The notes under the pieces: generated by a model | What the model saw: only the letters and a program-made list of their open reading frames with translations | Told to the model about the DNA's origin: nothing | Database searches by the model: none | Assembly (NCBI GenBank): GCA_965220875.1 | Contig: OZ244849.1 | Location: forward strand, 1,466,401 to 1,530,400 | DNA length: 64,000 bases | Reading direction: 5' to 3' | Source: Gammaproteobacteria bacterium | GTDB taxonomy: Bacteria; Pseudomonadota; Gammaproteobacteria; UBA4575 | Part shown: positions 15,310-38,500 of the stretch, piece after piece | How the letters are laid out: the number at the start of each line of letters is the position of its first letter | Position numbering within the stretch: position 1 is the first letter of the stretch | Position numbers and translations under genes: made by a program

Positions 15310-15331
15310 TTTTCATGAGGCACACCTTTAT

Positions 15332-15844: not shown

Positions 15845-16111
15845 GGTTTAGGCATCACACTTAGTATGTGCACTGATGTGAGTTCGGCTTTTGTCATCAT
15901 GCCATTTTTACAAACGCTTTGAATCTATTTATGATAGGTGATCACCAGTTTGATAATTTTTTCGCTAGCATTCAACATGAGAGTTACCTCCTGCAGTTAT
16001 GATGAAAACTTGTATTTTTATCAGATCAGGTTGAAACTCCAAACACTAGTTGCTTTTTGGTCATTTTAGTAAACATATCAAAGGTACCCTTGAACAGAAA
16101 GAGACAGCAGT

Positions 16112-16867: not shown

Positions 16868-16952
16868 GTTTGAAATGTTCTGCATTAACGTTATGTCATC
16901 ACGGCATATCTAGCATCCAGAAACAGCTAAGTGTCATTAGGTGTAACACAAA

Positions 16953-17699: not shown

Positions 17700-17885
17700 T
17701 GCTCACATAATCTTTTGGTGTCTAAAGATAAGTTGTTGACAATTAGCCTAGCTTTTATAAGCACCATCATCTGAGATTTGAAATTGAAGCGGGCCAGCAA
17801 GAATTCCGCGATACCGTTAATGATATATTTGGGAATTATATATTTAAGTTTACAAAGCATCGAAGAAAGGTGCTGATTGAAATAA

Positions 17886-18194
17886 TCAGCTAACCCAAGT
17901 TATCGATGCTTCCTTATCAGTAGCCGGGCGGGGTTTAACTATAATTGCTGCATACGATAAATCATCTCCATGAGCATGCGGCAAAAAATACCTTGCTACT
18001 ACTTCATAGATTGTTCTGTTGGCGGGGTTATTACGATCTAAGCCTTTAACTACTCCTAGGTCAACAATAAGATCACCGATTACTGGCACGGTGTTAGCTA
18101 AATGAAAGAAGTCATATTCCCATCCTATGTCTTCATAACGGCCAGTGTTTTCATTTTCTATATGCAGCCGAATTGCAATCTCTTTTTCTGACAT
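17886..18194 (-). CDS. Hypothetical protein
   Basis: 102 aa ORF; RBS-like GGAGGAGAAT upstream. Confidence 0.4.
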   Translation of the reverse strand: MSEKEIAIRLHIENENTGRYEDIGWEYDFFHLANTVPVIGDLIVDLGVVKGLDRNNPANRTIYEVVARYFLPHAHGDDLSYAAIIVKPRPATDKEASITWVS

Positions 18195-18248
18195 AACATT
18201 CTCCTCCGTTGCTGTGTCTTTGGTGTATTAACTTAGTATAATATACTA

Positions 18249-18446
18249 ATGGAACAAATGAAATTTGAAGATTTAGCTGGGGAAGAGATTATCAGAAAAG
18301 CCAACCAGTGGCTTTATACTGCATTGGGAGAACAACATCTTCCTGCAGTATTTGAACAAAAACTCATGATGGCTTACCGCAGCACTAAAGATGTTCTCAA
18401 CTCCTTAGAAGAAATCAAGAATGAGGGGATGGAGAACCTTTTATAG
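18249..18446 (+). CDS. Small hypothetical protein
   Basis: 65 aa ORF with weak RBS; convergent with and overlapping a minus-strand small ORF. Confidence 0.25.
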   Translation: MEQMKFEDLAGEEIIRKANQWLYTALGEQHLPAVFEQKLMMAYRSTKDVLNSLEEIKNEGMENLL

Positions 18447-18588
18447 CTTCTCTAATCGCTTTAAGTTCTTTAACTGCTATTTCCATTAACTTATTCGTAA
18501 TTGACACTTGAGTTACTAAACTCGTTAACGTGTTGTTAATTATTTCTGCGTTCTCAGTTTTCGGTTTGTTTAATTCCTGTTCACTCAT
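18415..18588 (-). CDS. Small hypothetical protein (57 aa)
   Basis: Strong SD AAGGGAGGATAAAATG; followed by a GCCAGACTC...GAGTCTGGC hairpin at 18633-18664. Confidence 0.3.
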   Translation of the reverse strand: MSEQELNKPKTENAEIINNTLTSLVTQVSITNKLMEIAVKELKAIREAIKGSPSPHS

Positions 18589-18850
18589 TTTATCCTCCCT
18601 TCTTAATTGGACTAAAGTCTACTACAATAAAAAGCCAGACTCCTGTTAGCAAGAGTCTGGCCTGTGCCGCGAGGCAACAACGTGGGGGTTGTATACTCGC
18701 GTTAAGGGGCAAAGGTAGGATTTAGCAAATTCAACAAATGCCCCTGTTCAGATGTTAAGTGCAGCCTCCCGAAGGAGGCTGCGATGTCTACGAGTAAAGT
18801 GGGAGCTTCAACTCGTATACAAAGGGGGTGTCTAAGCCCCTTTGTTCTTG

Positions 18851-20296
18851 TCAGTCACGAGTCGTGCCAAAAGCACCAATCACGTGACCATCTTGGAAAT
18901 GGCCGGTGAATTCACCTGTAACGCCGGATGGGTATGTAGTAGTTGCCGGTCGTGGAGGAGTAGCCGCAGTGTCAGCTACAGGACCAAAGAGCCTACCTTG
19001 CCATTCTCCTGCGGTGTCGCCGGAACCAGTAGTGGCTCCAAAGGTTCCATCGTAAGATGTATTATCAGCATTTCCATCTCTTAAGTGGGCGCGGTTTAAT
19101 GTTAAACCCCAGTCAGAAATCCTGCCATTCGCATTATGGAAATTGCTTACTGTTCCACTAATCGTGAACTGATCCCTGTCTGAGATTTCATTGGATTTGT
19201 TGACATGTGGGCCAGTGCCAGACGTACTACCGAAATGAGCAGTCAATACTACGTCAGCAGAAAATTGCCCTGTTTCTACTGGAGTGCCTGTTACCTTGCC
19301 ATCTGCAACTTCCAAATCTTTCCGAGCATAGAGTCCTGTTGCGGAACCTTCGTAAGTGGCAGTACCATCTAGGCTATCAAGATCAGTACTCGTAAATGTT
19401 CCGTCAGTTGCAGATGTGTAGGGCATGTTACCGCCTGCAAAAGTACCAACTCCATATTTCATATCACTGCCCATGGGTGTTGTCTGTACCCAATACCCAA
19501 ATGACTGATAATCTGTATCAGGTAAAGCACCTGAGATCATATGAATATCTTGAGTGTCGTCTTTCGTATTATTTGGAGTAAAAGTCAAATTTCCGCCTGC
19601 TAGGGTAATCGCTCCATTACTGGCTGCATTCAAAGTGCAAGTCGCACTACATGTATATTTACCCGACACATTATGGAACGTTCCGTTAATTGCATTATTA
19701 TTCCCACTTGCAAGGCTCCTACCAATGCTAATTCCTGATATGCGATTAGCGAGCGCAGTAGGGATAGAACCCGCAGCAATTTCTATTGTGTTATACCTTG
19801 TAGTGCCTGTGGGTGGTGCATCTCCTGTAGGTGCTGCGGCCGTTACATTTACACCTCCTACATCTATTGCTCCTACTGTATAGAATAAATCCCATGCTTG
19901 GGGTTTTGCGTCAGCAACATCAGAATAGACTGTAAGAACATCTGTCTTGTTGTCTTTAACTCGGCTGTAAACGCTCGATTTTAGAGTTCCTATACTTAGC
20001 CGAGATTCAGAGGATGCATTAAATTCTTCAGTGTTAAGAATAGTGACATCATTCATTCCCAATCTGTCACTATCTACAGTAAGCATCCCATTACGCCCAT
20101 AAGTTGTATCAGCACTTGGACGCTTACTATGGTTTAGTTCGCTTCCAGTGGGAACACCAGGCTCTCCATCCCCGTCAGGGTCAGCAATAGCTTCTGTCAA
20201 TCCTGCAATTCGCGCCAACTCTGCCTCACTAGGTCCAGGCTCCATGCAGTTTGGTGGCGTTCCGACTTGTCCTTCCGGACAAGTATCTGCCATCAT
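18851..20296 (-). CDS. TbpB/fHbp-like beta-barrel domain protein lacking a signal peptide
   Basis: 481 aa; C-terminus GEFTGHFQDGHVIGAFGTTRD resembles the handle/barrel end of Slam-type surface lipoproteins; in-frame TAG immediately upstream of the MMADT start, so no leader; Gly/Thr/Ser-rich. Confidence 0.5.
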   Translation of the reverse strand: MMADTCPEGQVGTPPNCMEPGPSEAELARIAGLTEAIADPDGDGEPGVPTGSELNHSKRPSADTTYGRNGMLTVDSDRLGMNDVTILNTEEFNASSESRLSIGTLKSSVYSRVKDNKTDVLTVYSDVADAKPQAWDLFYTVGAIDVGGVNVTAAAPTGDAPPTGTTRYNTIEIAAGSIPTALANRISGISIGRSLASGNNNAINGTFHNVSGKYTCSATCTLNAASNGAITLAGGNLTFTPNNTKDDTQDIHMISGALPDTDYQSFGYWVQTTPMGSDMKYGVGTFAGGNMPYTSATDGTFTSTDLDSLDGTATYEGSATGLYARKDLEVADGKVTGTPVETGQFSADVVLTAHFGSTSGTGPHVNKSNEISDRDQFTISGTVSNFHNANGRISDWGLTLNRAHLRDGNADNTSYDGTFGATTGSGDTAGEWQGRLFGPVADTAATPPRPATTTYPSGVTGEFTGHFQDGHVIGAFGTTRD

Positions 20297-20471
20297 CTCT
20301 TCTTCATCCTCGAAGTTTGCACGGACTTGGCTCTGAGCAAATCTATGTCTATATTGGGTAGACTAAAGACCTTTGATAGCAGCCAGGGAAACACAAACAA
20401 GCAGTTGGCATTTGCAAGTTGATGAATTACAAATTCGTAGTTACAATTATATTGTTATAGAGGGTTAGATT

Positions 20472-20762
20472 TTGCACTGGACATGGGATGAAAACAAAAA
20501 CTGCATCAACAAGCGGAAACACGGCATAGGTTTTGAGACGGCGCAGTTCGTGTTTGGTGACCCGCTGATGGTACAAAGGCAAGATCCAAACTCGGAAGAT
20601 GAACGATGGCATACCATTGGTATGATCAGCAGTGTGGTGGTGATTGTGGCACATACATGGCCCGGATCAGAACATGAAACAGGTCTGGAAGTGGGTCGTA
20701 TATTCAGTGCCCGGAAAGCCACAGCACATGAAAGGAGAGCCTATGAAGAAGGGGATTTCTAA
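20472..20762 (+). CDS. brnT: BrnT-family toxin (DUF497 ribonuclease)
   Basis: WDENKN..KHGI.FE.A N-terminal signature of BrnT. Confidence 0.7.
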   Translation: MHWTWDENKNCINKRKHGIGFETAQFVFGDPLMVQRQDPNSEDERWHTIGMISSVVVIVAHTWPGSEHETGLEVGRIFSARKATAHERRAYEEGDF

Positions 20763-21021
20763 ACAACTTACCAAAAAGCAAAAGGCAGAGATTGAAGCGC
20801 TTGCTGCGCTTCCCGATGAGAAAATTGATACAAGTGATATACCAGAGATTCTGGATTGGGCTGGAGCAAAGCGTGGTCTTCTATATCGGCCGGTCAAGCA
20901 ACAAATCACATTGAGACTGGATGCCGACGTTGTGGCTTGGTTCAAGTCGAATGTCCCAGATGGACGCAAATACCAGACCGAGATTAACCGTGTTCTTCGT
21001 GAGTATGCTCTGCGTGCCTGA
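20743..21021 (+). CDS. brnA: BrnA-family antitoxin (RHH/CopG-like)
   Basis: Overlaps the brnT stop by 20 nt; ~92 aa; C-terminal RKYQTEINRVLREYAL typical of BrnA. Confidence 0.6.
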   Translation: MKKGISKQLTKKQKAEIEALAALPDEKIDTSDIPEILDWAGAKRGLLYRPVKQQITLRLDADVVAWFKSNVPDGRKYQTEINRVLREYALRA

Positions 21022-21775
21022 AACTGCGAGTAGTGAAGTGTAGTGGTTTTGTGTGGGGCTAGGAAGTTGCAGGTGAGGGTTTTACGCTGTGGGCATCGCT
21101 CAGATATTTGATACACATGCGGCAGGTGGATCACCATTGGTCGGACGGGCCACCTCTACATGCATAAACTAGAAGCTGGTTTCGGATTCTATGCTGACAA
21201 CGACCTTGGCGGTTCAGTGAACGGACCAGGGGAAAGCAGTACGATACAGGATGTTGCTGCATATATCATGTCTGTGCTAACGAACGGAAGATACTGGGAG
21301 TACATCACGGCAACATCCGGGAATGGCTGACACGGTGCTCAAATGGGTCCTTGAAGCATCTAAACAAGAGAACTCGGAAGCAAAAATAGGTCATCCCAGC
21401 ACTGGCAGGGTAGCTTACACTCAGCCCCTGGCTTCCAAGGTCCAAACTTGGCGGCAACTTTGATTGCATCATTATCTGCAAGCTTTCGTTCTGGCTAGAA
21501 GGAATCTGGTAGCCCCGGCAAGTTTGTCAAGCAAATGCAGGCCAAGCATCCAGGACAACGAGCCGGAAGTCCAAGCACGGATTCCACGTCACTACCTGAG
21601 AACGCAGAGAGCGTGGTAGTGATGCGTGACATTCGGAGCGCAGGGCAAGGCAACACTATTATATTCGGGCTGCGAGGCTCGAATGCTCTACGAATGTCGG
21701 TACTTCTGCCAGTACAATGAAAAACAGGACTGTCTTAAAGTAATTAGAGATAGTAACTTAGGACCATCATTCGAT

Positions 21776-21943
21776 TTCTGCTAAGACGGCTAGGCTCAGT
21801 TCAGGTACACTTATACACACAAGAGAAACTACTACAGGAGTATTGTAGATTGCGGTCAGGTTTAGTTCAGATACACTCGAACAGATGAACTGCCTGACTT
21901 ATCTCCTATTGTAGATTGCGGTCGGGTTTAGTTCAGATACACT
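21776..21943 (+). CRISPR. Minimal CRISPR array: degenerate repeat, spacer, repeat, spacer, repeat (36-nt repeats ATTGTAGATTGCGGTC[A/G]GGTTTAGTTCAGATACACT, 30-nt spacers)
   Basis: Two near-identical 36-mers at 21842-21877 and 21908-21943, plus a degenerate copy ending at 21811; spacers TATACACACAAGAGAAACTACTACAGGAGT and CGAACAGATGAACTGCCTGACTTATCTCCT; repeat ends GTTGTAG.../...CTACAAT-like as in type II-C. Confidence 0.75.
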
Positions 21944-22188
21944 ATAGCCTGTATAAGCTACTGATAATAAAGGGGAGCTTAGAATATGGATAGTTGTTTT
22001 GGTGCTTGTTCTGTCGGAACACGCTTTGAACCTTGGTAGACTTGCATCCTTTCAAATTGCTTCTCCGTTATCTTTAAAATGCGTACCTCCCCCTTCGGGG
22101 GGAGTATCTTTTTTCGCATTTGTACGCTTTTGGACTTGACAAGTTAGGGTAGTCCCTGTAGTCTATAATCATAGACAAGGGGGCTGAT

Positions 22189-23095
22189 ATGAACATACTA
22201 GATATCTTCCAATCATTCAAAACACAAGAGCAGGCTATCGAATACCTTGAGCAGGTACGCTGGAAAGGCGAGCCGGTTTGTCCATACTGCAAAAGCAAAA
22301 AAACTCACCGGCATGCCAGCGGTGACAGGGCTGACACTCGTTGGCAGTGCCAAGAGTGCACACGGGCCTTTTCAGTCAAGGTAGGCACCATCTTCCACGG
22401 GACACACATTCCCTTGCAGAACTGGTTTCTGCTATTGGGCCTGATGCTGAATGCAAAGAAATCAGCCAGTGCGTGCCAACTGGCCCGTGATCTTGGAATG
22501 AGGCGGCCTACAGTATGGCGCATGATGCACAAGGTTCGCGTGGCTATGGCTAATGATCAAACACAGTCAGATTTGCTTCATGGCATCGTAGAAGCAGATG
22601 AAACCTATGTGGGCGGCAAGCCACGCAAGAGAAAAGTTAACAAAAACAACGATCTACCCCCCCCCCTCAGCCCCTAGAGGCCGTGCTACCCGTAAAACCC
22701 CGGTAATAGGTGTCGTAGAACGTCATGGTCAGGTAAGGGCAGCGACTGCTGAAAGGCGCGACCTGTCAGCCAAAGGGCTGACCCGATTTATCAAGAAACA
22801 TGTGGACCCTGAAGGCTCATGGTTAATGACTGATGAGTACCGTGCCTACCGAAGCATGGCCAAGTTCATTGACCATTCTGTTATTGCCCACACAAGAACG
22901 TATGTTGAGGGGATAGTACACACCAACACGATTGAGGGTTTTTGGGCACTGCTGAAACGTGCATGGTTCGGGTCACACCATCACTACAGCAAAAAGTACA
23001 TGGATTTGTACGTGTCCGAGGCTTGCTACAAGTACAACAGGCGTGAGCACAAGTGTTCATTTGATCACTTGTTGGGGCTCATGGTCAACGCATGA
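22189..23095 (+). pseudogene. IS1595-family transposase disrupted by a frameshift at a 10-C homopolymer
   Basis: ORFs 22189-22677 and 22598-23095 together span a full transposase (zinc ribbon ... HTNTIEGFWALLKR); frame changes at C10 tract 22657-22666. Confidence 0.8.
22657..22666 (+). repeat. Poly-C homopolymer (10 C) inside the transposase coding sequence
   Basis: Seen directly; the copy A transposase has no such tract at the corresponding position. Confidence 0.9.
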
Positions 23096-24729
23096 ACCGG
23101 CTGTACTATGGCGATAATCTTACAATCATGCAAAAGGAGATCGCCGCCCAGTCTGTTGATCTGATCTATCTTGATCCACCCTTCAATTCACAAAAGAATT
23201 ACAACCTGATTTACACACAGGCCACGGGGAAGCCTGTCCCCGCACAGGTGGAAGCCTTTTGTGATACATGGGAACTGGATGCCGAAAAGGAAGAGCTGGC
23301 AAGCAAGATGCCGGTTATCTTGAGAGCCCATGAAGTAGAGGACTATTACGTTAAATTCTGGCGGTACTGGATACTTGCATTACGCAATACCCATCCCAAA
23401 CTTCTGGCCTACCTGCTGTACATGGTGCAAAGGCTTTTGTACATGAAAATTTTATTGAAGCCTACAGGGGCTATCTATCTTCACTGCGACCCGAATGCAA
23501 GCCACTACATCAAAGTCATGATGGATGGGATATTCGGACATGGCAACTTTCGGAATGAAATTACCTGGCGGCGTGTAACTTCGGATCAGAAGGGCAGCCA
23601 ACATGACAGGAAGAGCTGGGGAAACAACGCGGATATCATTCTGTTCTACACAAGGTCCAACCAGTACAAGCTGCATGGAACGCGGCCATTGACTACAGAG
23701 GAAGCTGTTCAGAAATTTAACCAGACTGACGAAACTGGCAGGCGTTATTACGATGACAGCTCACACATATGGAGGACACCCGGCATGGGGCCTCGGCCTA
23801 ATCTGTGCTACGAATGGCGCGGATTTACAAACCCGCATCCAAGCGGGTGGAGGCTGAAGAAGGAAAGGCTTGAAGAGGAATACCAGAAAGGCAATATTGT
23901 TATCCGGCCTGATGGCAAGCTGGAGCGCAGGAAATACGAGGAAGATTATCCGGGTGCGCCAATCGGGAATATATGGACAGACATTGGCCCCGTCCCTGCC
24001 AGAAGTGGTGAACGTATAGGCTACCCTACACAGAAACCAGTGACCCTGCTCAAGCGTATTGTTAGGGCTTCTTGCCCACCTGACGGGCTTGTTTTCGACC
24101 CTTTCTGCGGATGCGGAACTACGACCTACGCAGCACAGGAAACGGGTCGCCGCTGGATTGGATGCGATATAGCGATATTGGCTATCAAGCTGATCAAATA
24201 CAATCTTGAAAAGGCATATGGATTGCACGAAGACAGGGAATTTGAAATTGACGGAATCCCGGTGAGTGTGGAAGGTGCTGTACAGCTATTCAGGAAAGAC
24301 CCGTTTCAGTTCCAGCATTGGGCTGTGGAGCGGGTGGACGGTTTCCCTACTCAAAAGAAAGTGGCAGACAAGGGCATAGACGGCAATATCTATTTTGAAA
24401 CGGATGACGGCTACAAGGACATGGTTATATCTGTGAAGGGCGGGACAGTAAGACCGACAGACATACGCGATCTGAGAGGCGTGCTGGAACGTGATACGGA
24501 CAGTGGCACAGTGATGGCGGGGTTTATATCAAACAGGGAACCTACCAAGGCTATGAAGGATGAGGCGGCCAAGGCAGGCATGTATACTTATGCAGGCCAT
24601 GATTACGAACGCATCCAGCTATTGACTACCAAACAGATACTGGAAGACAAGATGGAGTTCAGGACACCCAGTAAAATTGGTGTGAAGCAAAAGATGGGAC
24701 AGCTAAACCTTGACATCATCAGAGCGTAG
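23092..24729 (+). CDS. Beta-class DNA methyltransferase with C-terminal PD-(D/E)xK-like domain (paralog of 12423-14021)
   Basis: DPPF ... FDPFCGCGTT; C-terminal GIDGNIYF...VISVKGG; ATGA overlap with the transposase stop; roughly 55-60% identity to the copy A MTase by eye. Confidence 0.75.
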   Translation: MNRLYYGDNLTIMQKEIAAQSVDLIYLDPPFNSQKNYNLIYTQATGKPVPAQVEAFCDTWELDAEKEELASKMPVILRAHEVEDYYVKFWRYWILALRNTHPKLLAYLLYMVQRLLYMKILLKPTGAIYLHCDPNASHYIKVMMDGIFGHGNFRNEITWRRVTSDQKGSQHDRKSWGNNADIILFYTRSNQYKLHGTRPLTTEEAVQKFNQTDETGRRYYDDSSHIWRTPGMGPRPNLCYEWRGFTNPHPSGWRLKKERLEEEYQKGNIVIRPDGKLERRKYEEDYPGAPIGNIWTDIGPVPARSGERIGYPTQKPVTLLKRIVRASCPPDGLVFDPFCGCGTTTYAAQETGRRWIGCDIAILAIKLIKYNLEKAYGLHEDREFEIDGIPVSVEGAVQLFRKDPFQFQHWAVERVDGFPTQKKVADKGIDGNIYFETDDGYKDMVISVKGGTVRPTDIRDLRGVLERDTDSGTVMAGFISNREPTKAMKDEAAKAGMYTYAGHDYERIQLLTTKQILEDKMEFRTPSKIGVKQKMGQLNLDIIRA

Positions 24730-24731
24730 CA

Positions 24732-24971
24732 CTAGTATAGTCCAAAAGCGTACAAATGCGTCTTTTTTATTCTTTTGCAGTGTACTTCTGCACTTTCATC
24801 ACTGGCACAGTGTCTAGTGTAAACGGAGTACTGCAGCATTACAAAGCCGTCCGTCATTAGTCTTTTGCGAAATCTACTGTACTGGTATCGGTCAGATTTG
24901 GTTTCGGTTGGGAGGTCAAAAAGAACCATAGTCCACAAACTTCGAAATCCTCCGAAAATGATTTCAGTCAT
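24732..24971 (-). CDS. cas2: Cas2, C-terminally truncated by the IS insertion (last 9 codons and stop supplied by the IS end)
   Basis: MVLFDLPTET...RFRKRLMTDGFVMLQYSVY matches type II Cas2; the reading frame continues across the empty site into a Cas2-like C-terminus ending at 21979. Confidence 0.75.
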   Translation of the reverse strand: MTEIIFGGFRSLWTMVLFDLPTETKSDRYQYSRFRKRLMTDGFVMLQYSVYTRHCASDESAEVHCKRIKKTHLYAFGLY

Positions 24972-25855
24972 ACCAAAGCAGGAATAGTCAGCTTACCTTT
25001 ATGTGTTTCCAACACTTTGCGCAAACTAGCGCAGTAGACTGCCAGCGCACTCATGCAGGGGGTTTTGCGTTTTTTGATTAAAACTGGAGCACTGAGTACT
25101 GTAAGTAAATCATTTTTTGCATTTCTATCCAATCCATTGAATGTTTCGGCTTGTGACAATTTTGCGACACACCGATCTATCAACGGCCTTAGTGGTTCCA
25201 TTACATCATCAGCCAAACAAAAAACATTGTATTGGTTATGATGATGTATGCCGAAAGCAGGATGTAGCCCTGCACTCATGAGTGCACGAGAACATGCTGT
25301 CCGAATCAGACTGTACCCATAATTCAGAAGAATATTTACATCATTTGATCCACTCTGATCCCGTTTGAAATCTTTACCAAAAAGAGATTTGAAGTAGATT
25401 CGAGATGCTTGGGATTCATGATTAGCCGTATCATTCAGTCGCACCGTTTTTGCCAGTCGTTGCAGTCTGGCACTTGTAATCCCATGAACTGAAGTGAGCA
25501 CTGCCGACTGCGTGTAGATTTTTGCTCGAATGATTTGCTGCCAAATAATGTGATGTACTTGTTCTGGAGTTGACGCTTGCATGCGCATAATCCTGCCTTG
25601 AGTTGTATGAGCATCGAGTGGTAAAAGCAGGGAGGCAGGGAGGTGTTTTTCATCCGTGACAATGAGTGCAATGTTTTGTTTGGCACAGTGTCGAAATACG
25701 CTTTGACTGCACGTAATCTGTGGATTGTCCAGAATCAAAAAAGCGATATCATCAAAAGGAATGCTGTGTTTGCCTTCCTCATTTAGGACGATCAACTGGT
25801 TAAGACTGACTTGAAGATGTGCTTCTGAAGAAATTTCTATAGTTCTACGGATCAT
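24968..25855 (-). CDS. cas1: Cas1 (type II)
   Basis: About 295 aa from ATG 25855 (ATGA overlap with the cas9 stop); Cas1-like throughout; an upstream GTG at 25930 is an alternative start. Confidence 0.8.
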   Translation of the reverse strand: MIRRTIEISSEAHLQVSLNQLIVLNEEGKHSIPFDDIAFLILDNPQITCSQSVFRHCAKQNIALIVTDEKHLPASLLLPLDAHTTQGRIMRMQASTPEQVHHIIWQQIIRAKIYTQSAVLTSVHGITSARLQRLAKTVRLNDTANHESQASRIYFKSLFGKDFKRDQSGSNDVNILLNYGYSLIRTACSRALMSAGLHPAFGIHHHNQYNVFCLADDVMEPLRPLIDRCVAKLSQAETFNGLDRNAKNDLLTVLSAPVLIKKRKTPCMSALAVYCASLRKVLETHKGKLTIPALV

Positions 25856-28800
25856 GCTGACGATAACAACCCCAGGTTTCCTAACTCTACCTTCCTGCAG
25901 TTCAGTTTGTCCAAGGATGTAATTCGCCACATTCCCCAGTCTGATTCAGTCCCCGAGACACTATGATGGCGCAGAAAAAGGTCTATCCTCTTGTCACCAC
26001 TGCCGCTCATTTTCTGCACTCTGAAGTACGGTGTCTCTGCGTGCTCAGGTGCAAATTTATTCATATCTTTAAATATACTCATATCCTCGCAATACACCAT
26101 ATCATTGATGCATAGATCCAATTCGTAATACCACCCTTCCAACTCAGAAGGCGGCTCTTTTACTATGACCGGTTTTCCTGCACTGGCACGCTTAGCGGCC
26201 TCCAGCATTGTTATAATCTGAAATCGCCTTTCTTTGTTAGTACCCTCCTGTCCATTATGAAAGATGATCATGTGATGATTGCTGCCGGACAGGACATATG
26301 AGTTGCCTGTCTTGATATAAGATTTTGTCATCGGTCGCGCAATACGAGCTTTCAGGATAGGGGTAGAGGGATTACCTCTTTTGTCAAGCACACGAGGTGG
26401 TGTCTTATCTAGTTTCGCTTTAATTGTGCTGGATTTTTCTCCTACTAGATTATTTATTTCCAACCAGTAGAAAAGGGCATCATGAATAGATTTCTCAACT
26501 ACCCATGTACCAGTCCCTGGTGTCCAATTCCTGGAAAGTTTGGACAGGTACTCAGCTGTCAATTCCTTGCGGCAAGTCACACAAGGTGTCTGATAGATAA
26601 TTTTTGTCAGCTCTTTTCCTTTCCAACGGGGCAATGTGCGGTCAGTTGGCTTAAGTTTTTTTACTTCCGCAGCCCAATGTAACAGGACTGAGCGCAGGTC
26701 CTCATCCAGAATACAACTGCCGCCATCCCCATCTGGTTCAGCTTGTGCAATTTGCTGCACTTTTTTTAGAATATTTGACCTCATGCTCTCAATGTTCAGG
26801 CACTGGTCAAAGTACGATTTTCCATAATTAGTCTCTTCGTGCAAAGCGCCCCAGACTTTGCGTTTGATCATGTGGGATACGACAGTGGTATTCAACCGAT
26901 TACTCAAAAGACTGTGCAAGTCATGACTATCCTCCCAGCTTGTAGACAATCTCAAACGATTCTTCTTGATCCAGTCTTCTTTGGTAGTTCGATGCGGCAA
27001 AAACTTCTTATCCTGTTCCTTTTTATGGGCTTCAATCATTGACTTCAGCATGGCCCGGTCAGTAATGGCCACCACAAACGCATCCACTGCGTGATGACGA
27101 TGGTCGTGTCTCGATTTCTCAGACTTTTCTGCTTTGTCCGCACTATATTGCAAAATTTCACCTGTCTCTGTATCAATCTCTTTACCTGTTTCTATATAGA
27201 CACCAGAATCAGGTTTCCGAGGCAAAACGGAGTTCAATCCCAGTCTCCGACGAAGCTCACTTGTAGCTGCACCGTTATTAACGTCGATTGGTACTCCATA
27301 TTTTTCCAACATCTTTTTTGAAGCTGTAGCAATGTACCGGGTATCATTGAGTTGTCTATTTACGAAATCACTTTCACTTTCCGGGCAATGTGCCTTTTTA
27401 AGGAGATTGTTTCGCTTGCGGAGATTCTGATCCTTGCCAAATTTTTCCTTGGCGAACTTCTCTATATGCTGCCATCGATTCTCATTATGTCCCCAAGCTT
27501 CATAAGGTGTTTGCTTTCCTTTTTCATCATTACAACTGCGGCAACTGACAAGCGTATTCATGTAATTCTGTCTGAAACCTGTGTACGGAAGGATATGCTC
27601 AACTTCTGCTCCACCAGAAAACAGTTGACCGATACCGATCAACTTCTGGCAGTAAGGGCATTGCTCATCCTGCTCTTTCCACATCTTGTATTTTGATCGG
27701 TCATCAGGACTGATACGGCAGGCGACACCTCCTCGCACTCCCTCCAGGTTGATCCCGATACTGCCTGTTTTGTAGTGTTTCAGAATTTCCTCTTCCGCAT
27801 CCTCGTTTCGTTTCCTGTTCTGATTTTGCTGGCTTGCAATCTCAGCACGGTGCCTTTTTGAAGATTTCATCTCCCGCGCCATCTCAATACGGATAATGGC
27901 TGGCTTGCCATAATGCTTCACAATTGCATTCACTACGCGACGTATTTCATAGAGCGCTTTCTGCACGGTCGGGTTCGCTATATTCGGGACATCCTCAATT
28001 TTCAACAGGTACCCTTCGTTAGTCGCTTTCTGTATCTTAGTAATGCTTTCAATTTGTCCAATTTGTTTTACTGCTGCATAAAGGTCCATACCATCACGCA
28101 GATGAGGGAGTAATTCGTTGATAGCCTTAAGACTGTACTTACTATAGCCATCTTCCAACTGTTCGTTCACGGCAAGTCCCAAAGCACCCTTTTCATGGTC
28201 ACGATTAGGAAGATAGGAAGGAAACTTCCAATACTTAACAAGTCTGTCATACAACGTTTTTTTATTGTGCATTGTATGCAGATCTTCAACTAATTTAGTC
28301 TGCTTTTCCTTACCTAATTGCTGCCACGCTCGAATACCAATTGAATGGCTGACGGCTTGAGCCGTTCGATTCCCGATGAGGCCATTTTTCCCTGCACCGT
28401 CATCACGACTCTCGCCATAATTTAGATCCTTGACCTTCACATCTAGCGCCCTAGCAACTTCTTTCCACGAGATACGCCCTTGCCTGTTTAATCTCTCTGG
28501 ATCGTCAGCTAAGTTCGTCAACTGCTCTCGCTGCTCTGCAGTTAACGGTTTTTCACCGATCTGTATATTGTTGATGACCTGAAGGGTCCGGAATTCCTGG
28601 AATTCCAGCCGCATCACAGTTGTGCGTTTCTTTTTTGGATAGATGCTGCAGTTACCTACCGTACTCTTTTGCAATTGAAGCGGGCGTTGATCGAAAATTG
28701 CATCTTTTATCCTAGTAGATTCGTCCTCAGAAAAATGTTGAAAAGAATGTTGCTTTTCCCATATAGCATCAAATTCCCTTTCATACATTTCGCGACTGGC

Positions 28801-29595
28801 ACGAAATTCCAATTTTTCAATAACAGTTTCACCTTTATGGGGTTTGGACCTTTCAAACTGAAACAGCGTGATGCGATGAGGTGGTATTTGCTTATCCTGC
28901 GATGCCTGCCAAATAAACTGGCCAAGGGTACGGTTGCCAAGCTTTTGATCTAACTCGTCAATCGCTGCTAAAACAAGACCTGTTTCTCTTTTCTCCTCCC
29001 CACTCAGGGTGTCCTGATCATCTTTAGGCGTTATGAGGTTCAAGGACTTAATCAGTTCAACATACTTTGCGCCCCGATTGCTGAAATACCCACGTCTGCG
29101 TTGCAAATGCAGTAGCAATCTACCAAACTCGTGAGGCTCCAGTTCTTCTACCAAAGAAAAATTTCGCATGGCATAAGGAGAGCAGTACGCTTTGTCAGTA
29201 ACAGACCATGCCTTGGACCAGGGTTTGCCAAGCTTGCGTTCGGCATATCTTCGGTCGATTTTATTAAGCGCTTTTTCCGGATTTACTTGGTAGTCCTGAG
29301 GTAGCAAACCTTTATTTAGAAGTATGCTTACAAGTTTTTTACGACGTTCTTTGTAATATGCTCGACGGTTGCGGGCACCATGTGCCTCACGGCGTTTTTG
29401 ATTTTTTGGGACCCGTGTTTTGGCCTCCAGCATCTCCAAAAATATGCGAGAGTTCAAAGCGCGCAATGAAACCGGCTGATAGCCGGCATAAATTCCTTGA
29501 TGGTTGCCTTCCTCTAGCTTGCAATCTACAACTGCCCATCCAATAGAACTGGAACCCACATCTAGGCCAAGAATGTAGGAATCTTTGTTTTGCAT
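25852..29595 (-). CDS. cas9: Cas9 (type II-C-like, 1247 aa)
   Basis: RuvC-I ILGLDVGSSSIGWAVV; arginine-rich bridge helix; HNH CPYCQ...EVEHILPYTG...CRSCNDEKG; RQLNDTRYIA and HHAVDAFVVAIT RuvC motifs; no csn2 or cas4 nearby. Confidence 0.9.
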   Translation of the reverse strand: MQNKDSYILGLDVGSSSIGWAVVDCKLEEGNHQGIYAGYQPVSLRALNSRIFLEMLEAKTRVPKNQKRREAHGARNRRAYYKERRKKLVSILLNKGLLPQDYQVNPEKALNKIDRRYAERKLGKPWSKAWSVTDKAYCSPYAMRNFSLVEELEPHEFGRLLLHLQRRRGYFSNRGAKYVELIKSLNLITPKDDQDTLSGEEKRETGLVLAAIDELDQKLGNRTLGQFIWQASQDKQIPPHRITLFQFERSKPHKGETVIEKLEFRASREMYEREFDAIWEKQHSFQHFSEDESTRIKDAIFDQRPLQLQKSTVGNCSIYPKKKRTTVMRLEFQEFRTLQVINNIQIGEKPLTAEQREQLTNLADDPERLNRQGRISWKEVARALDVKVKDLNYGESRDDGAGKNGLIGNRTAQAVSHSIGIRAWQQLGKEKQTKLVEDLHTMHNKKTLYDRLVKYWKFPSYLPNRDHEKGALGLAVNEQLEDGYSKYSLKAINELLPHLRDGMDLYAAVKQIGQIESITKIQKATNEGYLLKIEDVPNIANPTVQKALYEIRRVVNAIVKHYGKPAIIRIEMAREMKSSKRHRAEIASQQNQNRKRNEDAEEEILKHYKTGSIGINLEGVRGGVACRISPDDRSKYKMWKEQDEQCPYCQKLIGIGQLFSGGAEVEHILPYTGFRQNYMNTLVSCRSCNDEKGKQTPYEAWGHNENRWQHIEKFAKEKFGKDQNLRKRNNLLKKAHCPESESDFVNRQLNDTRYIATASKKMLEKYGVPIDVNNGAATSELRRRLGLNSVLPRKPDSGVYIETGKEIDTETGEILQYSADKAEKSEKSRHDHRHHAVDAFVVAITDRAMLKSMIEAHKKEQDKKFLPHRTTKEDWIKKNRLRLSTSWEDSHDLHSLLSNRLNTTVVSHMIKRKVWGALHEETNYGKSYFDQCLNIESMRSNILKKVQQIAQAEPDGDGGSCILDEDLRSVLLHWAAEVKKLKPTDRTLPRWKGKELTKIIYQTPCVTCRKELTAEYLSKLSRNWTPGTGTWVVEKSIHDALFYWLEINNLVGEKSSTIKAKLDKTPPRVLDKRGNPSTPILKARIARPMTKSYIKTGNSYVLSGSNHHMIIFHNGQEGTNKERRFQIITMLEAAKRASAGKPVIVKEPPSELEGWYYELDLCINDMVYCEDMSIFKDMNKFAPEHAETPYFRVQKMSGSGDKRIDLFLRHHSVSGTESDWGMWRITSLDKLNCRKVELGNLGLLSSA

Positions 29596-29624
29596 TTTTT
29601 GAATTTAGGTACTAATATGTGGGG

Positions 29625-29732
29625 TACTAAATAGTGTATCTGAACTAAGCCTGCTCGTTTTTTACAACAAAATTCTAGCAGGATATGTCTTTTATGACTA
29701 AACCTTAACGCCTCTCAATGGGGCGTTTTTAG
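29625..29732 (+). ncRNA. Candidate tracrRNA (anti-repeat + intrinsic terminator), divergent from cas9
   Basis: 29633-29668 AGTGTATCTGAACTAAGCCTGCTCGTTTTTTACAAC is complementary over about 30 of 36 positions (including G-U pairs) to the CRISPR repeat; hairpin CGCCTC-TCAAT-GGGGCG followed by TTTTT at 29709-29730. Confidence 0.6.
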
Positions 29733-30979
29733 TTTTAGGCAACTTGAATTTTAGAGGCCACCCTTTTTGGTACCGCATTGAGTACGAATCTGGCGGACTA
29801 TGCAGCCTTCAATGCCACATAATTACTGGACGTGATTATCCCCTGAAAACAAGTACAACTGTATTATGTGATTTTGCGATCATCCGAGGATAGCCGATGA
29901 CAGCGAGTTTCGCACCTACTTCTGTATTGAACAAGTACTGTGATTTGTGGGTCACTTGTAATCCTGCGCGTGGTGAGTAAGTCTATACTCAGTATGGGTG
30001 TTATGAGCATGATTCCCTGTTCATGCAAGCCCTAGGTAAAAAGGCACCCGAAAATACATTTTCATTCCTTGGGATACAGGCCATCGCTACTGGATAGTAG
30101 AGGCCAAGTCTACCTATCGTAGCTTTTCTCTAAGCCTTGGGAGAGGCACAAGACTACTCTGACAAAGTGAATCAACTTGGAGTTGGGCTCAGCAAGATTT
30201 GCCACTGAAATTGCAGGCACGATCAGTCTTTTTATGTAACTATTGCTTATTGGAATGGTAAAGAATGGCTTGAAGTTGCCATCAATAATTACGAAACCAC
30301 AGGCTTTCATACTCTAGACCAGTGCCTGAACATTCTGGACAGGAACAGCAACATTCTACCTCTTTTCGATGATGAGCCAGACAGGTTCTTGCGTAATGTA
30401 AACGCTATAAATCAGACCTTGCATGACAATGAAGTGCCAGCAAGAACAGGGCAAGCGTTATGGCAGCTCTATTGCTAGCAGTAGTGCAAGACGGGAAATT
30501 TACGTATCCATGCTAAGCTTAAGATTACTAATTCCGTAGTCAAATCAGGTGTACAGGCAGCTTGAATTGTCAGCCACTCTGCTGCTTGTATTGATCACTT
30601 CCTTACCGTCTTGGGCTGAAACTCTAAGGGATTTGCCCGAGTTAATACTCGTCTGATACGGCGGAAAATACTGGACTGTACATGTCCTGAGAGGACAGTA
30701 GTGGCTATCGCACCCAGACTGGCAAACGCCCTATTGCATCAACACAGAAGGCTGTTGCCATTGCTTCAGACCGAAATGATGAACGGGGCTCTTATTTCTT
30801 TTGATCACCTAGCAGGACTCACCGCTAAAGGTGGTGAATATGTGCGGAATCCTAAGAGCTTGCTTTGGTCTAAAGCGTTGCGAGAACTGAGAGATCAAGG
30901 CATTAGTAGTAACGACAGCAACGTTGATTGAGTATATCCCTGTCTTGATTTCTAAACTCTTAGACGTCAAATAAAAATT

Positions 30980-31432
30980 TTGGAACCTTTAGATATAATC
31001 CCCTTTGAAAACAACAAAGGAGTAACAAAAATAATGATAGCTAACTGGAAAAATGTACTGCTGCGAAAAATGGTTTTGCAGATATGCTCAATTTACGGAG
31101 ACGGCCATGCGTTCCTTGGTGAGAGCTTCTGTGAAGATGAGTTCGGAATGGTGAAGTCACAGACAGGCAGGGAGGGGATAGACGGGTATATTCGGCATTT
31201 GGCAGTTCAGGTAAAGCTTAAGTGGGTTACTCAAGAAAACCTGTCCAGTCGGTATGTCACCATAAAACCTGATGCGGGCTTTGACGTATTGATTGTCTGT
31301 AAAAACGGCGCCGAGGGCGATGTAGAGTTGTTTGGTGCATGGGAAAAGCAACAAGTAGAAGCTGTCAGAAAGCCTAATACCAACAGGATAAACCTCAAGG
31401 ACCTCGCACAGCTTAATTGCTTTCAGTTATAG
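30980..31432 (+). CDS. Hypothetical protein, PD-(D/E)xK-like (paralog of 40957-41376)
   Basis: 150 aa; GESFCEDEFGMVKSQTG...DGYIRHLAVQVKLKW...DVLIVCKNG motif block shared with the 40957 ORF. Confidence 0.5.
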   Translation: MEPLDIIPFENNKGVTKIMIANWKNVLLRKMVLQICSIYGDGHAFLGESFCEDEFGMVKSQTGREGIDGYIRHLAVQVKLKWVTQENLSSRYVTIKPDAGFDVLIVCKNGAEGDVELFGAWEKQQVEAVRKPNTNRINLKDLAQLNCFQL

Positions 31433-31798: not shown

Positions 31799-31969
31799 AA
31801 TGGACAGGGCCTGTGTGCTAGTCTAAATCTGGTTGTTTATCCATTGAGGTTTGACAGGTGAGACCGTAGACTTTGTCATGACTTGCTCGCATGCCAGCCT
31901 GTGTAGAAGGTTATCGCGTTCATGCATCTGGCACGAGCTACATCATCCCAGTACTTTTCGGGAAAGCCG

Positions 31970-33151
31970 ATGCTGACATTTACAGAGGAACTCTTGCTCA
32001 TGCTGGGGGATGAGGAGGGCCTGTTTCTTCCCGTCAAGGAACATGCCTTTGAATGTGCACTGGCCGGTGCCATCCTGATGGATCTTGCCTTCGCATTTCG
32101 TATTGACACAGACCTGCAGGCACTCGTGGTCACCGACCCCACCCCTACGGGCAATCCCATGCTCGATTATGTGCTGGCAAAGATTGTTGCCCGCACGGAC
32201 ATTACAGACACCCCGACCTGGATCCGGGTCTTGGCCACCGAGGATGCCGCAGTGATTCGTGAGCAGGCCCTGGATGGCCTAGTGGGGCACCGCATCCTGA
32301 AAAGGCAGCACAACCGCTTTCTGGGGGTGTTTCGCTCCACCTGCTATCCCACCCTGGATGACCGGCCCGTGCAGGCGATCAAGTCACGCATCGAGGCAGT
32401 CGTCTCCGATGACATTCCGGACCCGCGGGACGTGGCCCTGATCTCCCTGGTGGACGCCTGCCAGATTCTCCCTGACCTGTTTCCCAAGTGGGAGGCGGAA
32501 CGCACCAACTCCCGGCTTGATCTGTTGCGCAGGATGGACCTGATCGGTCGCGAGCTCACCGGCACCATCACCGAAATCCAGAGCCGGATCATCCGTGCGG
32601 CACGCGCCCAGGCAGAACGCTTCAGGAAGACCCTACTAAGCCTGGCTGCGGTGGGCAGCGCGGCCACGATCGCAACCCTGCTGGTGCCGAGTATCGGGGT
32701 TCCGGACCGCTGGGGTCCTTCGCTCCCCGGGCTGCTCTGGTTCGACGGGTTCTGGAAGCAGTTCAGCGGCTACCTGCTGCTTGCACTCAGCATGGCCGGG
32801 CTGACAGTCGCGGTCACAATCAAGAAGCAGCTGCTGGCCTGGGTCTCGGGTTCACATCGCTGGAGGCTTTCCCACATCGTACTCGGCCTCGGCTGTGTAT
32901 TCATCCTCTTCATGCACACGGGATTTCGCCTGGGCAGCAATCTGAATGCCGCGCTGATGGGCAGTTACCTCACCGTGCTGCTGTCGGGCACGCTGGTCGG
33001 CGTGGTGGTCGGGGCAGCGCCGCGACTCAAGCAGATGGGCCTGCACAGGATCGGCCCGGCCCGGCGCACCCTGCTTTGGGTCCATGCCCTGGCGACTTGC
33101 CTGCTGCCGGCCCTGCTCATCGTTCACGTACTGTCCGTGTATCTCTACTAG
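31970..33151 (+). CDS. GPP34/GOLPH3-like domain protein with C-terminal multi-TM domain
   Basis: MLTFTEELLLMLGDEEG N-terminus resembles GPP34-family proteins; 4-5 C-terminal TM helices; about 65% GC. Confidence 0.5.
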   Translation: MLTFTEELLLMLGDEEGLFLPVKEHAFECALAGAILMDLAFAFRIDTDLQALVVTDPTPTGNPMLDYVLAKIVARTDITDTPTWIRVLATEDAAVIREQALDGLVGHRILKRQHNRFLGVFRSTCYPTLDDRPVQAIKSRIEAVVSDDIPDPRDVALISLVDACQILPDLFPKWEAERTNSRLDLLRRMDLIGRELTGTITEIQSRIIRAARAQAERFRKTLLSLAAVGSAATIATLLVPSIGVPDRWGPSLPGLLWFDGFWKQFSGYLLLALSMAGLTVAVTIKKQLLAWVSGSHRWRLSHIVLGLGCVFILFMHTGFRLGSNLNAALMGSYLTVLLSGTLVGVVVGAAPRLKQMGLHRIGPARRTLLWVHALATCLLPALLIVHVLSVYLY

Positions 33152-35545: not shown

Positions 35546-38500
35546 ATGAGGAGGTTTCCAGCAGTCCGACATTATTGCTGTAAAACACACTTTTTTGAGG
35601 TGTATACCTGGAAGGGTTTGTGTGTCCTGACGGTTCTTGGCCTAGCTACCCTGTCCATGGCCGGTAGCGATGCCTTTGCGGCTGCCGTGTGCAGCAACAC
35701 ACCTGGCGCAGGGAATCATATTCAATGTGAAGAACCAGCAACATCGACCAGCGATATAGATATTGATGCGGTGGGTGTCGATATCGACTTGACTGGGAGT
35801 GGCGTCTCCACTGCGGGGGTGCAAGCTGTGCATACAGGCAGCGGGGATGTGGATATCAGCATCAGCGGTGCGACAACCAACATGATGACCACTCCATCAA
35901 TGATCGACACGACAGGAAGCAATACTTTCGGTGTCCGTGGCACGCTGGTCGGCGAAGGCACCCTCACTTTCTCACTGGAAGATACCGAAATCCGAACACA
36001 GGGTACTGGCTCCATAGGACTGGGGGCCCGGCATATGGGCAACGGCCATCTCAAAGTGGACTTGAGGAACGGTGTCGTGATCGATACCCAGGGAGGCGGC
36101 AGCGCAATCGGTGTCAGGATGGTGCAGCAGAATACCGCTGCAAACCAAATGAACGACGTCACCTTTCTGGCCGAGGAAATTTCCGTTACTACTGCAGGGA
36201 GCCGAGGGTACGGCCTTTTTGCCACTCGAGAGGGCGGTCCCGGCAATATCCACATGACGGTCAGGGACAGTACGGTCATGACCCAAGGTAACATGGGGTT
36301 AGGCGTATTTGGCCAGCATTCCGGTACAGGCGACACAACGATCACCCTGGTCTGTACGGACTCCCCTGCAGTTCGCTGTGAGATCACGACCCCGGGGACC
36401 CAGGGACACGGCGTGCAAAGCTGGCATCATGCTAGCTCCAGCGGCGACATCCGGATCAAGGTACAGGGCAACTACGACATCCGAGCGGGGAGCACAGCTA
36501 CCAACAACGCCTACGGCATATACGGGCTGCATCAGGGTACCGGAAATATCGATATCGACCTGCAGGGCGGTGCCATCACCACCACCGGGGCTTCTTCCCA
36601 CGGCATTCATGGGTGAAAATTCACAGGAGCCCGGGGCAATGTCGACATCGACGTGCAGGGTGGTTCCATCACCACGGCAGGAACAGCTGCCCACGGCGCC
36701 TATGGGGCGCACCAGGGTACCGGAAATATCGATATCGACCTGCAGGGCGGTGCCATCACCACGGCAGGAACCACTTCCTACGGCGTCTACGGCTTGCATA
36801 CTGGATCCGGCAACATCAACCTCGCTACGGAAGGCGGTCATGGAGTTACCACACAAGGCTCCAATGGGCACGGCATCGTGGCCCTTCATTTGGGGAGAGC
36901 GACATCGGGACGCAATATCGACATCACGGTGGGCAGTCCGACCCGGCTGGGTGGTTTTATCAGGACAAGCGGCACAGGTGCCCGGGGTGTGCATGTAGGT
37001 GGCCTCAGCAATGGCGCACCGATCCGCGTGGCGGCCCGCGGTGCCGATGGCTTTTTGCAGCAGACGGTGCGGGTCAACCGGTCGATCACCAGCGCGGCCG
37101 AGGGGGTGTACCTGGCCGGGGGCGGCAAGGTCATCATCGGCCCTTCGGGCAGCATCGACTCGGACCTGGACATCGCCATCCTGGCCACCGGCACGGTCCC
37201 GGAAGATACCAGTGACATGAACAACGTGATCCCGGCTATCCCGCCCAAGCTGAGGGTGGACCTGAACCCCAGCGGGCAGCGCATGACAGGAGAGGACGGC
37301 TGGCTGGCCCAGGCCCTGGGCGGGGGCTGGATTCTCAACGAAGGTGGCGAGACCACGATTGCGGTCCACAATGTGGTGCTGCATGAGGGGGCGACGGGCG
37401 TCGTCCCCGGTGCGGTGGCCCGCAACGGTGCCTGGAACGTCACGATGCTGTCGGATGGGGTGACGGTGGCCCGCAGCACGGACCCGTTCACCGCCAGCAT
37501 GCGCACCGCAAATGTCTTCGCCGATCGCGATTTCTCTGAAGATGACTTCATGGAGCAGGTGCTCGCCTGCCTGGCAGGCCAGACCGGAACGCCCCCCAAC
37601 TGCATGGACCCTGATCCAGAACCCGATCCTGATCCTGAACCCGAACCAGAGCCCATGCCAGAACCCGATCCTGATCCTGAACCCGATCCTGATCCTGAAC
37701 CCGAACCAGAGCCCATGCCAGAACCCGATCCTGATCCTGAACCCGATCCTGATCCTGAACCCGAACCAGAGCCCATGCCAGAACCCGATCCTGATCCTGA
37801 ACCCGAACCAGAGCCTTCTGGCTCGGTGCTGATGGAGGACTATGCACCCCGTGCCGCCCTCTACGAGGCCCTGCCGAGCTTCCTGCTCGGCCTGCATACC
37901 GACCGCTGGCCGGGCCACCCCCCCTCGGCACCTGTCTGGATGGCCCTGTCAGGGACTACAGGAGACCAGGACTTTGATAACTCTACCGTAGACGTAGAGT
38001 TCGATACCGAACACCAGGTTTTTCAACTGGGGACTACCTTTGTACAGGACCCGCACTGGACCCTGCAGGCCACCCTGCACCATGTATCCGGTTCTGCGGA
38101 TGTCTCTTCTCCCGTACAGGGCGGAGACATTGATGCCGAAGGCCAAGGGATATCCCTTGCAACCCAATGGACCCGTGGTGGAGGTACCTATGCGAGGGGG
38201 AGGGTCGCCTGGACTGAATATGAGCTGGACATTGACTCCGAGGAAGTCGGGCGTCTGGTCTCTTCGCTGGATGCCGAGCGTCTTGCGATACAGCTTGAGG
38301 CTGGCCATCGGATGCCTTGGGGCGCCCGGGTTCACTGGACCCCGCATATCCGTCTTTCGCATACCCAAGTATCCATTGACCGCTTTACCGACCGTGTCGG
38401 GGCTCGGGTATCCTTTTCGGATGAGGAGCGTTCCAGTGCAGCCCTTGGCATCATGACCGATACCACGCGAAGTGCAGGGGGCGGTGAGCTTTCAATACGG

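Follow-up and report, generated by a model that had tools for sequence, protein, structure and literature searches.

The plus-strand segment 29626-29730 very probably encodes the tracrRNA of a type II-C CRISPR-Cas9 system. Its complementarity to the CRISPR repeat, uniqueness, conservation, co-variation, strand, promoter box and terminator can be read at the sequence level, and we infer that the RNA is expressed, processed by RNase III and bound by Cas9, and likewise where cas9 transcription might start. A tracrRNA is a kind of RNA that is already known; the Cas9 lineage to which this one belongs, from uncultured marine Gammaproteobacteria, is little studied. Throughout the text, "the window" is the whole 64-kb stretch of DNA that was analysed, and the features under discussion are listed in Table 1.

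Table 1. Coordinates, within the window, of the predicted tracrRNA gene, the cas genes, the CRISPR array and the insertion in cas2.
Feature	Position	Strand	Remarks
CRISPR array, crRNA sense	21776..21943	+	Sole array in the window; two 30-nt spacers
Parts of the array	degenerate repeat 21776-21811; spacer 21812-21841; repeat 21842-21877; spacer 21878-21907; repeat 21908-21943	+	
cas2, 3' part	21982..22114	-	Severed by the insertion
IS1595-family transposase	22189-22677 and 22598-23095		Two overlapping frames, in the insertion
IS passenger gene	23092-24729		545-aa DNA methylase fused to a restriction-endonuclease-like domain
cas2, 5' part	24761..24971	-	Codons 1 to ~71
cas1	24968..25930	-	Type II subtype; TIGR03639 cas1_NMENI, E = 1.5e-84
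cas9	25852..29595	-	1247 aa; divergent from the tracrRNA gene
Predicted sigma-70 promoter of the tracrRNA	29590..29618	+	-35 TTGCAT (29590-29595), 17-nt spacer, -10 TAATAT (29613-29618)
Predicted primary tracrRNA	29626..29730	+	~105 nt; with promoter and terminator; nhmmer homologues in 23 related loci
Anti-repeat AGTGTATCTGAACTAAGCCTGCTCGTTTTTTACAAC	29633-29668	+	Pairs with the entire 36-nt CRISPR repeat
Hairpin S1, predicted for the free tracrRNA	29650..29682	+	CCUGCU (29650-29655) with AGCAGG (29677-29682); UUUU (29660-29663) with AAAA (29669-29672)
Nexus-like stem-loop, predicted for the crRNA-bound state	29680..29705	+	AGG (29680-29682) with CCU (29703-29705), around GUC (29687-29689) with GAC (29696-29698)
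Intrinsic terminator AACGCCUC-UCAAU-GGGGCGUU, then UUUUU	29707..29730	+	Hairpin 29707-29727, 8 pairs; U-run 29726-29730

The cas9 product matches TIGR01865 (E = 6e-156) and contains RuvC_III, HNH_4 and Cas9_a domains; catalytic-type residues are invariant in the alignment of the family. The closest solved structures are type II-C Cas9s (8jtj, 7.5e-44; 6jdq, 1.5e-33; phmmer), to which the protein appears, by sequence, to be only distantly related. Neither csn2 nor cas4 is present among the ORFs of the window, the cas content being limited to cas9, cas1 and cas2, and the system is therefore classified as type II-C; the sequence families into which Cas9 and Cas1 fall are likewise those of type II-C. 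The called genes of nine related loci include cas9, cas1 and, where called, cas2, with no match to a csn2 or cas4 family. An in-frame TAA four codons upstream and a RuvC-I motif at residue 7 define the cas9 start codon (ATG, 29595-29593, minus strand), and with it a gap of 37 nt between ATG and anti-repeat. A preliminary description of this DNA had rightly noted how close the two lie, and gave the distance as 38 bp.

The anti-repeat forms 32 pairs with the 36 positions of the array repeat ATTGTAGATTGCGGTCAGGTTTAGTTCAGATACACT, 28 of them Watson-Crick and four G-U; what stays unpaired is a U.U/U.U internal loop, at positions 9-10 of the repeat, and one mismatch each at positions 1 and 15. This bears out the earlier claim that the anti-repeat covers the full repeat with about 30 of 36 pairs, G-U included. 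The bulge described there is also present, although in the guide-proximal third of the duplex and not at its centre. Co-folding of repeat with anti-repeat, which had been proposed as a check, gives a stable duplex of -45.4 kcal/mol, as compared with -12.1 +/- 3.1 in 2000 shuffles (z = -10.8); in the opposite orientation the value is -35.9. Except for the antisense of the array itself, there is no second partner for the repeat on either strand of the 64-kb window. An anti-repeat upstream of cas9 is the usual arrangement in types II-A and II-C (PMC3737331). Rfam gives no match in 29596-29732 at E values up to 10 (scan of 21000-31000), and tracrRNA sequences are too diverse for curated covariance-model matching (PMC3737331).

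Homologues of this Cas9, at 43-94% identity, are found only in assemblies of uncultured Gammaproteobacteria, some of them labelled Arenicellales or Oxydemutatoraceae; 15 genome loci and nine metagenome-assembly loci were compared. An nhmmer search with the window element recovers a homologue at 23 of the 24 related cas9 loci, and the last (L012) was aligned by eye. The element and cas9 are nearly always found on opposite strands, with the ATG 32-55 nt away from the element; in L003, L005, L006 and L012 the distance is 100-180 nt. There are two exceptions in placement, L010, where the element is located between cas2 and the array, and L008, where it is located beyond the array. L010 possesses a full tracrRNA gene at 15136-15041 and, upstream of cas9, a relic anti-repeat (9957-9922) without a scaffold. 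In L008 the tracrRNA gene occupies 16839-16940, and cas9 appears to be disrupted.

Wider searches added little. A metagenome scan with the Cas9 alignment found no relatives. The 11 matches (L016-L026) to the tracrRNA core CTGCTYGTTTTTTACAACAAAA in a metagenome scan represent one unrelated sequence without the scaffold, mostly from gut, and were rejected as chance. A tblastn search of plasmids returned only Cas9 homologues of 30% identity or less, which at that identity are useless for co-variation. One more distant locus, L036, encodes a 1307-aa Cas9 homologue (5001-8924; 37% identity), beside which cas1 and cas2 are not called; a repeated sequence begins approximately 270 nt after cas9, within a called 202-aa ORF, and inspection by eye of the region upstream of cas9 reveals no recognisable tracrRNA-like element.

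The predicted tracrRNA gene has the features of a transcription unit of its own, with a promoter and an intrinsic terminator on the anti-repeat strand. Transcription is predicted to start at about 29624-29626, some 7 nt 5' of the anti-repeat. The -35 hexamer is complementary to cas9 codons 1-2 (ATG CAA), and the promoter therefore sits on the cas9 translation start. A TANNNT box ending 8-22 nt 5' of the anti-repeat is found at 22 of the 23 homologous loci (1000 shuffles: mean 11.1, maximum 19), and at nine loci the box is TGn-extended (shuffles: mean 1.1, maximum 5). TTGCAT, as read by eye, occurs 17-18 nt 5' of the -10 box in at least eight lineages. By consensus this is a weak -35 sequence, and because it matches TTGACA at only three of six positions the promoter is missing from our consensus promoter scan.

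At the other end of the gene the hairpin followed by UUUUU, to which the preliminary description had drawn attention, is located about 100 nt past the start of the anti-repeat, where the RNA had been expected to end; the hairpin proves to be longer than was described, at eight pairs. Four of the eight show compensatory changes. Several properties favour the plus strand as the one that is read. The U-run follows the hairpin on this strand only; a U-G pair in the hairpin, which on the other strand would be a C.A mismatch, is kept in 22 of 24 sequences; and the hairpin has an energy of -12.2 on the plus strand versus -8.7 on the minus strand. The whole tracrRNA folds at -27.0 kcal/mol (z = -4.06), compared with -19.9 for the opposite strand. 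Together with the duplex energies given above, these sequence-based comparisons support a plus-strand RNA.

This bears directly on another reading of the region, which we judge very improbable: that it does nothing more than supply the 5' leader of the cas9 mRNA, transcribed from the minus strand, that its repeat-like part regulates cas9 or belongs to its promoter, and that no small RNA is made. It is true that cas9 needs a promoter and that its ATG is only 37 nt away from the anti-repeat, that the complement of the anti-repeat contains TACACT (29638-29633) aimed at cas9, that the minus strand has a consensus promoter match at 29700-29672, and that L010 retains a relic anti-repeat upstream of cas9 with its full tracrRNA gene elsewhere. 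However, the U-run, the U-G pairs and the energies favour the plus strand, on which the -10 box is kept at 22 of 23 loci; the minus-strand match loses its key A in most relatives; and the elements of L010 and L008 are complete, with scaffold and terminator, away from cas9. A leader function for cas9 may exist alongside the tracrRNA, rather than instead of it.

As to how cas9 itself is transcribed, three promoter candidates can be named: TACACT (29638-29633) in the complement of the anti-repeat, which is present at every locus by construction; TGcTAGAAT (29680-29672), which is part of the minus-strand consensus match 29700-29672; and TAAATT, just 5' of the ATG. The second was rejected, the key A of its -10 box being lost in most relatives (ATTCCA or ATTCAA for ATTCTA). 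A leaderless cas9 mRNA arising from TAAATT, 6 nt 5' of the ATG, was also rejected, as the window and L001 have the motif and L027 and others do not. On grounds of geometry, any cas9 promoter must overlap either the tracrRNA promoter or the tracrRNA gene. That the complement of the anti-repeat, with the -10 box of the repeat, acts as the cas9 promoter is a possibility. If this is true, transcription of cas9 and of the tracrRNA would be tied through one overlapping, mutually exclusive pair of promoters.

The preliminary description had arrived at overlapping promoters by another route, from the lack of an obvious Shine-Dalgarno sequence at cas9. The observation is sound: no GGAG-like motif precedes cas9 in the window, and a Shine-Dalgarno sequence is absent from nine of nine relatives with called starts. 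The conclusion does not follow from it, since the majority of the other window genes that were checked likewise lack a recognisable Shine-Dalgarno sequence, and its absence at cas9 is therefore uninformative about promoters. What can be retained is that the predicted tracrRNA promoter covers the cas9 start codon; its overlap with the cas9 promoter is a matter of geometry only. The IS transposase is a clear exception among the window genes, with the Shine-Dalgarno sequence AAGGGGG.

Conservation and co-variation also separate the tracrRNA from a decaying, functionless inverted copy of the CRISPR repeat. Solo repeat-like relics do occur among the related loci (L010, L003), and in the window the array is nearly gone and cas2 is broken; nevertheless we find a relic hardly credible, in view of the following. 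The whole 105-nt unit, beyond its repeat-like part, is conserved down to approximately 43% Cas9 identity. The anti-repeat of each locus tracks its own repeat, with compensatory changes, relative to the window, at 14 repeat positions (8, 15, 19, 21-25, 27, 28, 30, 33, 35 and 36) across 10 relatives; the U.U/U.U loop and the mismatch at position 1 are unchanged in all relatives compared. Even the closest relative (L001; 94% Cas9 identity) differs at repeat position 22, and the change is matched on both partners. The hairpins carry compensatory changes as well: in the 24-sequence alignment, seven pairs of the stem-loop and terminator are changed on both sides, a count reached by none of 500 shuffles, slid controls giving at most three.

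Scarcely tenable is the notion of a regulatory guide-like RNA, of the scaRNA or long-tracrRNA type, which would steer Cas9 to gene repression instead of serving as the general crRNA partner: such RNAs are encoded beside cas9 in types II-A and II-B (PMC10120712), and AGCAGG with its flank resembles a sense repeat and pairs with the anti-repeat, but the window holds no other anti-repeat to serve as the real tracrRNA, no sense repeat-like segment lies 5' of the anti-repeat (29501-30300), and the repeat-like piece, being 3' of the anti-repeat, makes no guide position available.

Downstream of the anti-repeat, the predicted tracrRNA has a structured 3' scaffold in which co-variation backs the stem-loop and the terminator. 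The nexus-like stem begins 11 nt past the anti-repeat, and folding without the anti-repeat predicts its helix for 22 of the 24 homologues. In the inner stem-loop (GUC with GAC), each of the three pairs shows compensatory changes. The outer helix is paired in 82% of cases, with one compensatory change, from A-U to G-C (GGG:CCC in L010), and is not placed in the RNAalifold consensus; it is thus a weakly supported element of the scaffold.

In the free RNA a different structure is predicted. Hairpin S1, the CCUGCU strand of which lies within the anti-repeat, encloses the guide-proximal part of the anti-repeat, and it is found both in the minimum-energy fold (z = -4.06) and in the RNAalifold consensus. 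Pairing is retained in 89% of the alignment cells, and the changes are mainly one-sided, from C-G to U-G, which on the other strand would be mismatches. In every lineage tested the S1 segment exceeds its shuffles in stability (z = -2.5 to -4.6), and it occurs with different helix sequences in L006, L012, L009, L010 and the 28%-identity locus L014. In L012 and L006 the helix is formed by AACAUU with AAUGUU, AACAUU being an insertion at the bulge of the anti-repeat. S1 is also retained in L010 and L008, in which the element does not adjoin cas9, and it is therefore a property of the tracrRNA and not of the cas9 leader. The support for S1 comes mainly from conserved sequence and one-sided changes, with few compensatory pairs; the hairpin is probably real. 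In co-folding, at least 18 nt of bound repeat opens S1, and 16 nt or less leaves it closed.

The bulge insertions deserve a separate description. They are located exactly at the bulge of the anti-repeat (AACAUU in L012, approximately 5 nt in L006) and have no partner in the repeat; each is complementary to a matching downstream insertion (AAUGUU), so that the free tracrRNA would have a longer hairpin.

These predictions lead us to propose, as a tentative and testable hypothesis that we consider rather less likely than its alternatives, that crRNA operates the tracrRNA of this Cas9 lineage as a switch. While the tracrRNA is unbound, S1 would hide the guide-proximal half of the anti-repeat together with the 5' strand of the nexus-like stem, and the 5' half of the anti-repeat would stay single-stranded and act as a toehold. 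Pairing with at least 18 nt of a genuine repeat would then displace S1, releasing AGG (29680-29682) to pair with CCU (29703-29705) and so building the scaffold that Cas9 would recognise. Cas9 would thereby load only tracrRNA already carrying a crRNA, short chance complementarity to cellular RNAs being insufficient. Refolding of a tracrRNA triggered by crRNA would, if real, be a new layer of control on the loading of Cas9.

The array of the window is 7.7 kb from the tracrRNA gene, not adjacent to it, because of the mobile element inserted in cas2. In related loci the arrays directly follow cas2 and comprise 6-131 repeats with the same termini and a degenerate repeat at the cas2-distal end. For instance, L001 has 29 repeats and 28 spacers, as compared with two repeats, a degenerate one and two spacers in the window. 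Neither of the two spacers matches elsewhere in the window. Since the anti-repeat is on the plus strand, crRNAs should be read from the plus strand, toward cas2 and opposite to the cas operon. The preliminary description had suggested this direction by analogy with Neisseria, and it is upheld by the strand of the anti-repeat and by the published arrangement: the arrays of N. meningitidis and C. jejuni have been found by experiment to be transcribed opposite to the cas operon (PMC3737331).

In type II-C systems crRNAs begin at promoters embedded in the repeats (PMC12477760; PMC5965381). The -10-like box TACACT closes each repeat of the window and is preceded, at 16 nt, by TTGCGG. Across the 13 arrays of relatives that were compared, the repeats have TACAAT, TATAAT or TATAAC as their 3' ends, most of them likewise with TTGCGG at this distance. 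Every repeat thus carries at its 3' end a box of the sort used in Neisseria-type crRNA biogenesis, and by analogy with Neisseria the crRNA transcripts probably start at the promoter-like box within each repeat.

Taken as a tracrRNA, the element would function as follows. It would be transcribed from approximately 7 nt 5' of the anti-repeat to the hairpin and U-run at 29707-29730, and its anti-repeat would pair with each repeat in plus-strand transcripts of the array, giving a duplex in which the U.U/U.U internal loop separates a 7-bp guide-proximal stem from a long distal stem. The nexus-like stem-loop and the terminator hairpin would form the scaffold bound by the 1247-aa Cas9. With cas2 split and two spacers left, the local system is damaged, and the tracrRNA may at present have little to do.

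The damage to cas2 is evident by comparison with L001. The gene is interrupted by an insertion of 2646 bp (22115-24760), whose terminal inverted repeats of 22 bp (CGCATTTGTACGCTTTTGGACT) are perfect and whose target duplication measures 8 bp (TCTTTTTT); this IS1595-family insertion looks recent. The 5' open frame of cas2 continues for eight codons into the inserted element, to a stop at 24732. If 22107-24760, which comprises the insertion and one copy of the duplication, is deleted in silico, the result is a 112-aa Cas2 that can be aligned over its full length with the proteins of the relatives. With cas2 split, spacer acquisition is probably disabled and the adaptation module probably inactive; cas9, the tracrRNA gene and the two spacers appear to be intact.

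A G+C-rich hairpin with a T-run, antisense in cas2, is located at 22086-22114 on the plus strand, and L001 has a similar hairpin and T-run. We considered it as a terminator between the array and cas2 and rejected it, as it is within the coding sequence of cas2 (LPPKGE) and the insertion breaks it up. It might keep array transcripts from entering cas2, or be a by-product of the codons.

The system has much in common with that of N. meningitidis. Both consist of a cas9-cas1-cas2 operon only, with a cas1 of the NMENI subtype, and both have 36-nt repeats and 30-nt spacers; the termini of the strain 8013 repeat GTTGTAGCTCCCTTTCTCATTTCGCAGTGCTACAAT, GTTGTAG...TACAAT (PMC12477760), resemble ATTGTAG...TACACT of the window. 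In both, the array is opposite to the cas operon, with a degenerate repeat at its transcriptional start (PMC3737331), and a -10-like box is found at the 3' end of each repeat, transcription from within the repeats being predicted from sequence in our case. The sizes of the primary tracrRNAs are also close, approximately 105 nt (predicted) and 110 nt (PMC3737331), respectively. In contrast, the window Cas9 is distant from that of N. meningitidis (1.5e-33 to 6jdq by phmmer) and about 165 aa longer, and the tracrRNA sequences are unrelated. The nexus-like stem of the window tracrRNA begins 11 nt after the anti-repeat, and a hairpin that hides the anti-repeat is predicted. We know of no description of such a hairpin for the N. 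meningitidis tracrRNA.

As in the type II-A system of S. pyogenes, the tracrRNA gene is located upstream of cas9 on the opposite strand, and the control regions of the two genes are intertwined; in the window, unlike S. pyogenes, the -35 hexamer of the tracrRNA is directly on the cas9 start codon. S. pyogenes differs further in its subtype, with csn2, and in having an array that is read in the direction of the cas genes (PMC3737331). In its long-form tracrRNA a repeat-like segment precedes the anti-repeat on the 5' side, and this RNA represses the cas9 promoter (PMC10120712); no such segment is found on the same strand 5' of the anti-repeat in 29501-30300 of the window. L003 has a solo, crRNA-sense repeat-like sequence (9903-9868) that is identical to the L003 repeat at 29 of 36 positions; it lies approximately 50 nt upstream of the anti-repeat, on the same strand, and recalls the long-form tracrRNA of S. 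pyogenes, a natural single guide.

The best match among solved structures (7.5e-44) is to a protein which, like that of PDB 8uza, we take to be GeoCas9, the Cas9 of Geobacillus stearothermophilus (8jtj). The guides share a type II-C layout, in which a duplex is followed by at least two hairpins. The match spans only approximately residues 250-760, and the guide RNA sequences are unrelated.

The tracrRNA described here would supply the missing RNA component for a distinct clade of type II-C Cas9s of approximately 1240 aa, all from assemblies of uncultured Gammaproteobacteria and with at most weak similarity to any solved Cas9. The repeat, anti-repeat, bulge, scaffold and terminator are defined and have been cross-checked in 24 loci, which makes it possible to design a single-guide RNA and to test the enzyme. 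The findings would also extend the Neisseria-type layout to another lineage, including an array read toward cas2, promoter-like boxes within the repeats and a compact, divergent tracrRNA-cas9 pair.

Some other features of the window may be mentioned. A stretch of approximately 10.8 kb beside the array (10983-21775) has no counterpart in L001. Within it are a second fusion gene of the methylase/endonuclease-like kind (12414-14021; 45% identity to the IS passenger), genes for a 5'-nucleotidase (14329-15309) and an HNH protein (16112-16867), and several ORFs for which Pfam gives no match. The ORF at 31922-33151 has a Golgi phosphoprotein 3 (GPP34) domain (E = 2.6e-39), a match that is unexpected in a bacterial genome because the Pfam name denotes a eukaryotic Golgi protein family; it may be relevant to a host-associated lifestyle. 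Tandem repeats with units of 87 nt and of 18/60 nt (coding repeats of the Pro-Asp-Pro-Glu type) are found at 36509-36808 and 37589-37816, the former being located inside a large ORF that starts at 35546.
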